Assembly: GCA_963977015.1 (NCBI GenBank)
Contig: CAXBMO010000003.1
Coordinates: 384,001 to 448,000 of the forward strand
DNA from: an uncultured bacterium
Lineage (GTDB): Bacteria; Verrucomicrobiota; Verrucomicrobiia; Verrucomicrobiales; DEV007
Length of the DNA stretch: 64,000 bases
Direction of reading: 5' to 3'
Both the position numbers and the translations under genes were made by a program. Below, piece by piece: positions 17,649-20,142 of the stretch; position 1 is the first letter of the stretch, and every line of letters starts with the position of its first letter. The notes under the pieces were generated by a model, which had not been told where the DNA came from, searched no databases, and worked only from the letters and a program-made list of their open reading frames with translations.

Positions 17649-18851
17649 TTACCGCATCGCCCAATCCAACTCAGATGCCTCGATGGGAGCGGGTTCCGGG
17701 TATTCGAAGGTCTTGCCCTCGAAATTGCGGATGATCACACGCTCTTCGTTGCGCTGAATCACGGTTTCCGGGTTCATCGGCACTTTTCCACCGCCGCCAG
17801 GCGCATCGATTACGTATTGCGGAACGGCATAACCCGTGGTGTGCCCACGAAGTCCGCTGATGATCTCAAGTCCCTTGGAAACGGGCACGCTGAGGTGCGA
17901 AGAGCCTTTAATCAGGTCCAATTGGTAGAGATAATAAGGCCGGACCCGGCAGCGAAGCAGCTTGTGAACCAACGTCTTCATGACCTCCAACCGATCGTTC
18001 ACCCCGCGCAAGAGGACACTTTGATTTCCAAGAGGAATTCCGCTGTTGGCAAGCCGCTCCAACGCCTCCTTCACTTCCAACGTCAACTCCCGGGGATGAT
18101 TGACGTGAACGCTGATGAACAATGGGTGATGCTGCTTCAGCATCTCGCACAATTCGGGCGTGATCCGTTGAGGAAGAAAAACCGGAACGCGCGAGCCGAT
18201 GCGGACAAATTCGATGTGCTCAATGCTTCTGAGCCGCCGGAGAATTTTCTCCAATTTCGAGTCACTCAGCAAAAGTGGATCGCCCCCTGAAAGTAGAACG
18301 TCGCGAACTTCAGTGTGTTCTTCGAGGTAACGGAAAGCCGCTTCAAATTGGGTGTCGAGATGCTGTTCCCCGGCACCACTGACGACCCGGCTTCGGGTGC
18401 AATAGCGGCAGTAGCTGGCACAACGATCGGTCACCAGAAAATTGACACGATCCGGATAGCGATGCACCAACCCCGCAACCGGCATGTCTCCATCCTCGCC
18501 ACAGGGATCCTCCATTTCATAGTCGGCTTCCCAGGTTTCTTCGATTCGGGGAATGACTTGGCGGCGAATCGGACAATTGGGATTGTCCTTATCGATCAAA
18601 TTCATGAAGTGGGGCGTAATGGCCATCGCCAGCTTGTTCCCACTCAGGATCACCCCGCTCCGCTCTTCATCGGTGAGATTCAGATGTTCTTCGAGGGCGC
18701 CCAGCGATGTAACACGGTTTTTTTGCTGCCAAATCCAGGAATTCCAATCTTCTTCGGCGACTTTCCGGTCAGCCCAATAGCCCGGAGCGTAAGATGTGAA
18801 GTCCCTTTCGGGAACCGTTGCGTCAAAGGTCATAGATGCGGTCAGATTCAA
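17649..18851 (-). CDS. KamA family radical SAM aminomutase (lysine 2,3-aminomutase-like)
   Basis: GLVHRYPDRV, CASYCRYCTR, VRDVLLSGGDPL, NQSVLLRGVND, PYYLYQ and PLP-lysine motif DAPGGGGKVP. The start may be ATG 18833. Confidence 0.92.
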   Translation of the reverse strand: MNLTASMTFDATVPERDFTSYAPGYWADRKVAEEDWNSWIWQQKNRVTSLGALEEHLNLTDEERSGVILSGNKLAMAITPHFMNLIDKDNPNCPIRRQVIPRIEETWEADYEMEDPCGEDGDMPVAGLVHRYPDRVNFLVTDRCASYCRYCTRSRVVSGAGEQHLDTQFEAAFRYLEEHTEVRDVLLSGGDPLLLSDSKLEKILRRLRSIEHIEFVRIGSRVPVFLPQRITPELCEMLKQHHPLFISVHVNHPRELTLEVKEALERLANSGIPLGNQSVLLRGVNDRLEVMKTLVHKLLRCRVRPYYLYQLDLIKGSSHLSVPVSKGLEIISGLRGHTTGYAVPQYVIDAPGGGGKVPMNPETVIQRNEERVIIRNFEGKTFEYPEPAPIEASELDWAMR

Positions 18852-18878
18852 TTCGGACTCTGAACAAGAAAAAAGCTT

Positions 18879-18906
18879 ACGGTAGGAGGTACCATTGGGG
18901 TGTCAA
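18879..18906 (-). promoter_or_regulatory. Sigma70-like promoter of the kamA-family gene
   Basis: Minus strand TTGACA(18906-18901)-N16-TACCGT(18884-18879). Confidence 0.6.
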
Positions 18907-18944
18907 CCATCACCTCAACACTTGCCGTATGACAAAAGTACCAG

Positions 18945-18972
18945 TTGCAGCCCGCCCGGTGATGCCTAAGAT
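18945..18972 (+). promoter_or_regulatory. Sigma70-like promoter of the structured RNA and small protein
   Basis: TTGCAG-N16-TAAGAT, with the same spacing as other promoters here. Predicted +1 is about 18979-18981, at the start of the RNA's closing stem. Confidence 0.6.
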
Positions 18973-18980
18973 CCCTCCTA

Positions 18981-19172
18981 GCATCAGGAGTGGTGCTGCG
19001 GTGAGTGATAAGCAAACTGCGGCATCCGGCAACCTGGCATGGAGAAGCCAAGGTGCCTTGGAAGCTGAAGGGAACTTCAGTCTCCGATGTGCGGAACTGA
19101 TTTGCCGGATTTCGGCACGTCAGCCGAACAGCAATTCTCCGCCGGAAGAATCTCCGGACATGTTCCTGATGC
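18981..19172 (+). ncRNA. Candidate structured cis-regulatory RNA / riboswitch (unrecognised family)
   Basis: Closing helix GCATCAGGAG (18981-90) / TTCCTGATGC (19163-72) encloses six hairpins with several G-U pairs and a GGAA tetraloop. No credible ORF covers it. Confidence 0.65.
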
Positions 19173-19213
19173 GGTGAACGAATGAAACTTCAACCGACAT
19201 CGCATCAACTATC

Positions 19214-19456
19214 ATGAATCAGACAGTCATTGAGTCCGATCAGGGAAGACCGGCTCTTCCAACACCCAAACTCAGCGTGAGGGTGAATTCCGAGAACGAG
19301 AATCACCACCTTTGGAACAACCGGGGAACCTGGTGGTGCCATTTCACCGTCCACAAAGCCGATTATACCACGGAACGCATTCGCTTGAGCCTCAAGACCC
19401 GCAGTTTGGAGGAAGCCCGGAACCGGCGGGATCGCGTTTTTGCCGGCTTGGGCTAG
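19214..19456 (+). CDS. Small basic protein resembling an integrase arm-type / DUF6538-like nucleic-acid-binding domain
   Basis: HHLWNNRGTWWCHFTV...ERIRLSLKTRSLEEARNRRD gives a beta-beta-beta-alpha pattern like integrase N-terminal domains; no catalytic domain follows. Confidence 0.65.
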   Translation: MNQTVIESDQGRPALPTPKLSVRVNSENENHHLWNNRGTWWCHFTVHKADYTTERIRLSLKTRSLEEARNRRDRVFAGLG

Positions 19457-19551
19457 CACCATTGCTGCCGGCGCGATCGCGTTTCCGCTTGAAATGTGAT
19501 CAATTCTGAGTTGGTAAGTCTGCCGCGGAAAGCACCCCGCGCAGAAATATC

Positions 19552-20142
19552 ATGGCTGAAGTGAATTCGACGTTTGAACTCAGGCGGGGCGCCATTGCGC
19601 CGGACTTCGAGCTTCCCGAAGGCGGAGCAAAGAAAAAGCATTCCCTTGAAGATCTTGCCGAGGGAAAATCGGCAATCGTCATTCTGTTTGCCTGCAACCA
19701 CTGTCCGTATGTGGTCCACCTGGCCGATTATGTGGGAGAGTTCGCCGATGAATACGCGAAGAAGGGTGTTCAGTTCGTCGCCATCAATTCCAACGATGCC
19801 AAAAAGTATCCGGATGATGCTCCCGAGAAGATGAAGGAGTTTTCCAAGGCGCACGACTGGAACTTCCCCTACCTATTCGATGAGGACCAGAATGTGGCCA
19901 AGTCCTACTCCGCAGCCTGCACGCCGGATTTCTATGTCTTCAACCAGAATCTGGAATTGACCTACACTGGACAGTTCGACAATTCGCGGCCCGGCAATTC
20001 AGCGCCCATCACTGGTGCCGATCTGAGAACGGCTCTTGAGTCCACCCTTCGAAACGGAAAAGCAGACTCCGTGCGCATGCGCCCAAGCAGCGGATGCAAC
20101 ATCAAATGGAAAAAGGGCAACGAACCCGCCTATTTCGGCTAA
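19552..20142 (+). CDS. Thioredoxin-family protein (AhpC/TSA, peroxiredoxin-like)
   Basis: APDFELP, CNHCPYV, AINSND...YPDD, ACTPDF and GCNIKW. Confidence 0.9.
   Translation: MAEVNSTFELRRGAIAPDFELPEGGAKKKHSLEDLAEGKSAIVILFACNHCPYVVHLADYVGEFADEYAKKGVQFVAINSNDAKKYPDDAPEKMKEFSKAHDWNFPYLFDEDQNVAKSYSAACTPDFYVFNQNLELTYTGQFDNSRPGNSAPITGADLRTALESTLRNGKADSVRMRPSSGCNIKWKKGNEPAYFG

Follow-up and report, generated by a model that had tools for sequence, protein, structure and literature searches.

We analyzed a 64,000-nucleotide stretch of DNA (the window) from an uncultured bacterium of the Verrucomicrobiales (contig CAXBMO010000003.1), in which positions 18981-19216 form the leader of a gene for a protein of 80 amino acids. 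This leader probably contains a diverged riboswitch of the SAM-I/IV type with a purely translational platform, in which strand exchange would turn the gene off in the presence of S-adenosylmethionine (SAM). Two mutually exclusive helices are central to this interpretation, a hairpin in front of the start codon, termed sequestor, and a long-range helix between the 5' strand of the aptamer and the sequestor region, termed anti-sequestor. What was observed are the helices with their conservation, covariation in both the aptamer and the hairpin, and two folds of near-equal computed energy.

Using the gathering thresholds of Rfam, no match was found anywhere in the window. In an E-value scan the SAM-I/IV model (RF01725) matched 18976-19110 with 32.3 bits (E 0.004), and this match was unique within the 6.9-Mb genome. 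The aptamer escaped standard annotation because it scores below the Rfam cut-off, and the low score was caused by insertions, not by core mismatches. Compared to RF01725, P2 of the window is extended by 21 nucleotides (nt), the internal hairpin 19060-85 is added and the external hairpin is long, while the core nucleotides (CAUC, GAG, CCGGCAACCUGGC, GCCAAGGUGCC, GAUG) are present with AGGAG for AAGAG as the sole core difference. Other aptamers of the types SAM-I, SAM-II and SAM-IV were not found in the window's genome among the 150 first-look candidates scored per search: RF00162 gave no match at E <=1, and the best scores for RF00521 (16.7 bits) and RF00634 (20.5 bits) were far below the cut-offs. 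Region 18976-19140 thus appears to be a diverged SAM-I/IV-type aptamer and SAM, by homology, its likely ligand. Its structure was tested on 31 distinct leaders, which were collected from related loci and aligned. The elements are as follows.

18981 to 18985, plus strand: 5' strand of P1 (GCAUC), also first half of the anti-sequestor 5' strand; placed by the RF01725 alignment, 98.1% paired.
18986 to 18989, plus strand: J1/2 junction (AGGA), unpaired in the aptamer fold, paired in the anti-sequestor.
18990 to 19027, plus strand: P2, a long undivided hairpin with a lineage-specific extension; five of six base-of-stem pairs changed on both sides, 96.8% of cells paired.
19028 to 19057, plus strand: P3 (GGCAACCUGGC ... 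GCCAAGGUGCC), near-invariant in relatives, 98.6% paired.
19041-46, plus strand: pseudoknot strand GGAGAA in the P3 loop, pairing with 19135-40.
19060 to 19085, plus strand: internal hairpin between P3 and the P1 3' strand, found in folds; an insertion relative to RF01725, variable in length and absent in leader L017.
19086 to 19090, plus strand: 3' strand of P1 (GAUGU), placed by the RF01725 alignment, folds and pairing in the 31 leaders.
19092 to 19126, plus strand: external hairpin 3' of P1 from a constrained fold; RF01725 has a hairpin there.
19135 to 19140, plus strand: 3' strand of the pseudoknot (UUCUCC), 92.8% paired, two of six pairs changed on both sides.
19142 to 19157, plus strand: small spacer hairpin (CCGGA ... 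UCCGG), found in folds of the leader.

The RF01725 model closes P1 by pairing 18981-85 with 19086-90, and across the leaders one pair of this helix was changed on both sides. For P1, P2, P3 and the pseudoknot (19041-46/19135-40) together, 96.8% of the cells were paired and eight pairs were changed on both sides, while slid registers were paired to 28-53%, and on all five measures the observed structure surpassed each of 500 shuffles. The P2 stem was continuous and undivided in the folds; a pseudoknot of the P2 loop was not explicitly searched for. The SAM-I/IV class is described as having an undivided P2, free of an internal loop, kink-turn or P2-loop pseudoknot, and a pseudoknot that joins the P3 loop to the 3' tail beyond a hairpin after P1 (PMC2864571, PMC6890682). 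The undivided P2 and the pseudoknot of the window agree with this.

Relatives of the region 18940-19240 were detected by blastn in 20 of 61 genomes, with 88-95% identity across genera in the core 19019-19066. Scanning 20 related loci, 17 matched SAM-I/IV, 7 of them at or over 41.1 bits, one matched SAM-I best and two matched nothing. Order-wide, an RF01725 match was present in 36 of 151 genomes, almost always exactly one each and in 10 over the cut-off, and 27 of 30 RF01725 loci from this search then encode the 80-aa protein family. At L016/L109, L112 and L113 the aptamer precedes a different gene, with a terminator and a start-proximal hairpin carrying the same sequence box retained; the gene downstream in L016 is a long open reading frame (ORF) with GPHGTAKS, a Walker-A-like motif. 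The best RF01725 match of the order (L108, G083:C110:189138-189476) reached 53 bits with the canonical AAGAG and the same protein family downstream. Its platform differs, having GGAGG within a hairpin directly after P1 and GCAUCA following AUG; with GGAGG inside a hairpin next to P1 this would be another OFF design.

The junction reads AGGAG in 30 of the 31 leaders, L016 having AAGAG. A G where RF01725 has a conserved A could mean that the mechanism is the same and the aptamer of this lineage senses another ligand, such as S-adenosylhomocysteine (SAH) or a SAM-related compound. The unusual gene association would fit such a change, the regulated gene not belonging to SAM or methionine metabolism. 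We nevertheless regard a different ligand as very unlikely. All remaining consensus core nucleotides match, and both the canonical AAGAG aptamer of L108 and a set of aptamers near the cut-off precede the same protein family, which argues for one ligand across the family.

The sequestor was first proposed by a sequence-only reading, which had described a riboswitch-like expression platform over the initiation region. Its letters and coordinates proved to be exact: TGATGCGGTG is found at 19167-76, CATCGCATCA at 19198-207 and ATG at 19214-16. In the RNA, UGAUGCGGUG and CAUCGCAUCA pair at all 10 positions, one of them as G.U, and the 3' arm lies 7-16 nt upstream of ATG 19214. As the same reading had noted, a clear Shine-Dalgarno sequence is missing; nothing similar to GGAGG occurs in the 16 nt preceding this ATG. 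The elements of the platform and its gene are as follows.

19163 to 19172, plus strand: 3' strand of the anti-sequestor (UUCCUGAUGC), partner 18981-90; -15.3 kcal/mol, conserved box, no covariation.
19167 to 19176, plus strand: 5' arm of the sequestor (UGAUGCGGUG), overlapping the anti-sequestor strand by 6 nt; supported by folds, alignment and register counts.
19198 to 19207, plus strand: 3' arm of the sequestor (CAUCGCAUCA), paired 0.98 in the P1-forced and 0.48 in the anti-sequestor-forced ensemble.
19214 to 19456, plus strand: putatively regulated gene for the 80-aa protein with the invariant motif HHLW-N-G-WW; from the ORF and a protein alignment, single copy in the genome.

The hairpin was part of the minimum-free-energy fold of 18960-19240 (z = -4.75 versus 200 shuffles) and of 18979-19230, and its pairs had probabilities of 0.59-0.77 in the unconstrained ensemble. 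When the 3' region was shuffled against an unchanged 5' arm, 10/10 pairs arose in 1 of 500 cases. Judged from this single sequence, the hairpin exceeds chance only modestly; its conservation across relatives is the stronger evidence.

Among the 31 leaders the sequence 3' of the aptamer varies, apart from a CUGAUG box conserved to at least 90%. When the final 80 nt in front of each start codon were folded locally, most leaders showed this box as the 5' arm of a hairpin whose 3' arm abuts or includes AUG; in L010, one of the exceptions, no stem of at least 5 stacked pairs was found. Counted in a fixed ungapped register, 27 of 31 leaders had 8 or more of the 10 pairs and 8 leaders had all 10, with the end of the 3' arm ranging from -7 to +8 relative to AUG. 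In a MAFFT alignment of the sequestor region (A2), 86.0% of 258 cells were paired compared to 23-54% in slid registers. The 86.0% is an underestimate, as A2 misplaces the 3' arm in about 10 of the divergent leaders. Two sequestor pairs were changed on both sides, and neither the observed percentage paired nor the covariation score was reached by any of 500 shuffles. Local folds and the fixed register further showed that L018 (UGGUGCGUUC/GAACGCAUCA) and L017 (UGAUGUGA/UCACAUCA) retain the helix by compensatory changes. RNAduplex with wide free windows separated real leaders from shuffles poorly and was replaced by the fixed-register and alignment-based counts. The initiation region was paired with a median of 0.58 in the aptamer-bearing leaders (n=31) versus 0.46 in leaders of aptamer-less paralogs (n=64), a difference overstated by its p-value because the sequences are related. 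The sequence-only proposal of a riboswitch expression platform that would act by accessibility of the initiation region is supported.

The competing helix joins GCAUCAGGAG (18981-90) and UUCCUGAUGC (19163-72) by 10 base pairs with a duplex energy of -15.3 kcal/mol. Its 3' strand and the sequestor 5' arm share 6 nt, which makes the two helices mutually exclusive. Its pairs had probabilities of 0.16-0.37 in the unconstrained ensemble, in which both folds are populated. It had been pointed out before that CGCATCA repeats the GCATCA at the 5' end of the RNA and that two near-identical segments therefore compete for one partner; this is correct, and both pairings were found by folding. The 9-mer TCCTGATGC is found at 3 sites in the window when both strands are counted, two of these sites being this inverted pair, compared to 0.73 expected, and 5 of 100 shuffles gave at least 3. 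None of about 290 control segments in the window binds the aptamer 5' strand as well as the competitor does. Across the 31 leaders, pairing between the aptamer 5' strand and the first box copy was seen in 87.1% of 279 cells versus 26-63% in slid registers. As a side observation, the fold beginning at 18960 allows another UGAUGC, at 18960-65, to pair with GCAUCA 18981-86.

The conservation of this complementarity bears on the view that the hairpin is a constitutive leader element, serving mRNA stability, fixed damping of translation or binding of the 80-aa protein, without any strand exchange. The dominance of the hairpin in the unconstrained ensemble (0.59-0.77) agrees with such an element, as do the sequestor copies of several terminator-bearing leaders, which pair poorly with the aptamer 5' strand (6-7/10), and an anti-sequestor helix that does not covary. 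A hairpin selected only for its fold should, however, drift, whereas 23 of 31 leaders keep the sequestor 5' arm complementary to the aptamer 5' strand with no fewer than 8 of 10 pairs. Moreover, the sequestor copy of the box shows 33 substitutions, of which 18 are the transitions A>G or C>U, which keep wobble pairing with that strand. The disruptive box substitutions sit in leaders that also carry a terminator copy, separate terminator copies repeat the same box, and in L017 and L038 an altered first P1 base is matched by a fitting downstream base. With two folds lying within about 3 kcal/mol in addition, we consider a purely constitutive hairpin unlikely and strand exchange the preferred explanation.

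The energies of the two folds were compared in forced ensembles. The anti-sequestor state reached -102.1 kcal/mol versus -99.4 kcal/mol for the P1 state, the latter with junction and pseudoknot strands held free and pseudoknot and ligand energy excluded. In the model the two folds are therefore near-equal in energy, within about 3 kcal/mol. The 3' arm 19198-207 was paired with 0.98 in the P1 state and 0.48 in the anti-sequestor state, and the region from -18 to +3 with 0.69 in the P1 state.

From these data we propose the following mechanism, in which we infer SAM as ligand from homology, along with the direction of the switch and its effect on translation. Four strands would take part: strand 1, GCAUCAGGAG (18981-90); strand 2, GAUGU (19086-90); strand 3, UUCCUGAUGCGGUG (19163-76); and strand 4, CAUCGCAUCA (19198-207), with strand 2 resembling strand 3 and strand 1 resembling strand 4. 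With SAM bound, strand 1 would be held in the aptamer, forming P1 with strand 2, leaving AGGA unpaired and beginning P2 with G18990, and the pseudoknot 19041-46/19135-40 would form. Strand 3 would then be free to pair with strand 4 in the 10-bp hairpin ending 7 nt before AUG, which is predicted to block 30S loading on this Shine-Dalgarno-less mRNA and thus to turn translation off. At low SAM the weak 5-bp P1 would be displaced and strands 1 and 3 would form the 10-bp long-range helix, which would enclose and unfold the aptamer, release strand 4 and turn translation on. The long-range helix and the folded aptamer exclude each other, since the helix takes up AGGA 18986-89 as well as G18990, with which P2 begins. 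As the anti-sequestor, this helix would give way on SAM binding, and 19163-76 should then be available for closing the hairpin.

The opposite polarity had been suggested by the sequence-only reading, in which 18981-90/19163-72 was taken as the P1 helix that a ligand stabilizes, freeing 19198-207 and switching translation on. The helix itself exists with its -15.3 kcal/mol, its complementarity is conserved, and it excludes the hairpin through the 6-nt overlap. The check suggested earlier, whether both pairings are conserved in homologs, came out positive in the 31 leaders, with covariation found for the sequestor only. P1, however, is closed at 19086-90 both by the family model and by the 31 aligned leaders, and the long-range helix pairs AGGA 18986-89 and G18990, which the aptamer fold uses otherwise. 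The terminators of the relatives speak for the reverse direction as well. A stable hairpin with a T-run between aptamer and sequestor was flagged in 17 of 31 leaders in our own scan; the flag of L003 was judged spurious. In 14 of 31 leaders the box itself forms part of a terminator-like hairpin with a T-run behind it. There, a ligand-stabilized long-range helix would be an anti-terminator and the switch SAM-ON, and the SAM clan is not known to include a SAM-ON switch. In terminator leaders the ligand must switch expression off, because P1, by capturing the aptamer 5' strand, leaves the terminator free; the translational hairpin shares this geometry, which implies OFF there too. An ON switch is thus highly improbable, and the long-range helix would serve as the anti-sequestor of a SAM-OFF device. 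The window itself had no terminator (GC-rich hairpin plus T-run) within 18800-19600 in two scans, and its same-genus relatives L003 and L004 had no credible one either.

Several observations weigh against the proposed SAM-OFF switch. The score of 32.3 bits lies below the RF01725 gathering cut-off of 41.1 bits, and the junction AGGAG, differing from the consensus AAGAG, could go with an altered ligand. With both arms free in wider segments, 3 of 100 shuffles folded equally well, and in A2 the both-side pair changes of the sequestor were matched by 445 of 500 shuffles and the further pair types by 214 of 500. For the anti-sequestor helix covariation is absent and the observed values were equaled by 500 of 500 shuffles, which are uninformative here, both sides being nearly invariant. 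Conserved complementarity is hence what speaks for this helix, and the conservation of the box could merely reflect its role as an arm of the hairpin. Even in the anti-sequestor-forced ensemble the initiation region was still paired with 0.44. A consensus scan of 18800-19600 found no sigma-70 promoter, and the gene for the 80-aa protein has no evident link to SAM metabolism.

In most leaders a TAnnnT-like hexamer lies 7-12 nt before AGCAUC, and this position suggests a transcription start just before P1. In the window, a TAAGAT hexamer is located downstream of the UGAUGC at 18960-65 (within 18960-18973).

The start codon ATG 19214 is the first one after a stop and the only Met codon 5' of the conserved part of the protein. 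The motif reads HHLWNNRGTWW in the window, and the invariant residues include H31, H32, L33, W34, N36, G38, W40, W41, T45, H47, R55 and R57. Four histidines (H31, H32, H43, H47) show full or near-full invariance. Pfam gave a weak match to DUF6538 (16.9 bits versus a cut-off of 27), and NCBIfam gave no match. In the ESM Atlas Verrucomicrobiota hypothetical proteins were listed together with a DUF6538 cluster at 0.89; DUF6538 was not found in the literature searched. AlphaFold predicted three strands and a helix with a predicted local distance difference test score (pLDDT) of 76.6. Foldseek found nothing in the PDB at E <=0.001. VIA-align yielded a best Z of 4.3, with the arm-binding N-terminal domain of lambda integrase at Z 4.1 and AP2/GCC-box domains at Z 3.5-3.7 among its top rows. 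A role in nucleic acid binding is a lead, not a result, as the integrase and AP2 rows tie with unrelated folds.

The protein is encoded in 70 of 151 genomes of the order-wide set, including 33 of the 36 aptamer-bearing ones, while the aptamer was present at only 16 of 80 loci selected by the protein. A group of paralogs (L027-L104, for example L027 3001-3189; Akkermansia, Luteolibacter, Haloferula, Roseibacillus) with the N-terminus MKRKPKLALRVN and the C-terminus EHYEIAA is devoid of the aptamer. At gathering scores, no riboswitch was found upstream in 20 aptamer-less paralog loci, only tRNAs and one 6S RNA. Six of these 20 loci have a tRNA gene about 100-400 nt downstream, which recalls the adjacency of integrases and tRNAs. 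The genome G007 of the window's family holds four copies of the protein on four contigs and no RF01725 match. In L004 (G001) the reading frame set by the ATG that follows the sequestor does not match that of the HHLW part, due to a frameshift or an assembly error. In L053, L060, L080, L086 and L098 an ORF fragment was noticed about 2.4-3 kb upstream on the opposite strand with one large gene in between; it is putatively the N-terminus of methionine synthase (MetH-like), and its position may reflect lineage synteny instead of a functional link.

On the minus strand, 17649-18851, transcribed divergently from the riboswitch, encodes a radical SAM aminomutase of the KamA family (TIGR00238, 365 bits), which does not reach the equivalog cut-off of lysine, glutamate or arginine 2,3-aminomutase. 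Synteny of this gene and a downstream redoxin was found only within the same genus (L003 and L025 are the same contig), and KamA as a functional partner was rejected for this reason. In ORF clustering, no gene was shared by 10 or more of the 31 leader loci. From the ligands named by the sequence-only reading, SAM stays as the likely one by homology, while lysine and beta-lysine, suggested by the KamA-like neighbor, are not supported.

Compared to known systems, the window shares with SAM-I/IV (RF01725, SAM clan CL00012) the core nucleotides of P1, J1/2, P2 and P3, and aligned homologs from Verrucomicrobiales reach the cut-off. A hairpin after P1 is a further common feature, along with the P3-loop/3'-tail pseudoknot (PMC6890682, PMC2864571). 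It differs in its score, the P2 extension, the extra internal hairpin, the long external hairpin, AGGA instead of AAGA, and in the putative control of a tiny protein instead of a methionine or SAM gene. With the SAM-I (S-box) platform of Firmicutes it would have in common that the ligand switches off and that formation of P1 chooses between downstream folds; about half of the window's relatives also use an intrinsic terminator. The switching strand of the S-box is the P1 3' strand, which pairs with the 5' arm of the terminator. Here, in contrast, the P1 5' strand plus J1/2 would switch, and a look-alike of the P1 3' strand further downstream would capture it, the resulting helix spanning the aptamer. 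Riboswitches acting on translation by sequestering the initiation region, for instance the SAM/SAH type (PMC10516623), likewise occlude the ribosome site depending on the ligand, as predicted here. In the window, unlike in that type, there is no Shine-Dalgarno sequence and a separate hairpin outside the aptamer would occlude, and in relatives the sequestor is stacked behind a terminator by means of a second copy of the competitor box. With its predicted three strands and helix, the 80-aa protein may resemble integrase arm-type and AP2-like domains and DUF6538. All these matches fall below trusted thresholds and tie with unrelated folds, and the protein stands alone, without a recombinase domain. 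The literature searched, which did not extend to the supplements of PMC2864571, contained no account of a Verrucomicrobial SAM-I/IV switch or of the 80-aa protein.

With a known riboswitch clan and familiar sequestor logic, the mechanism as such is unsurprising. Distinctive is an aptamer 5' strand that would be exchanged between the P1 3' strand and downstream look-alikes, and relatives that use the box for a terminator and a translational hairpin in tandem. Genes of unknown function guarded by riboswitches have repeatedly led to new biology. The association of aptamer and protein at 27 of 30 loci and in 33 of 36 genomes makes the 80-aa protein a strong candidate for an unrecognized SAM-responsive factor. 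As a tentative and so far rather speculative extension, in many Verrucomicrobiales the sole SAM-clan riboswitch might control this stand-alone integrase-arm/AP2-like protein, which would be made only at low SAM. Such a two-tier cascade would comprise a small nucleic-acid-binding regulator with a SAM- or methylation-linked regulon, and decoy copies of the P1 3' strand would stack the terminator and translational gates. If this is true, an RNA sensor would drive a small trans-acting regulator in these bacteria, and the decoys would let two gates share one aptamer.

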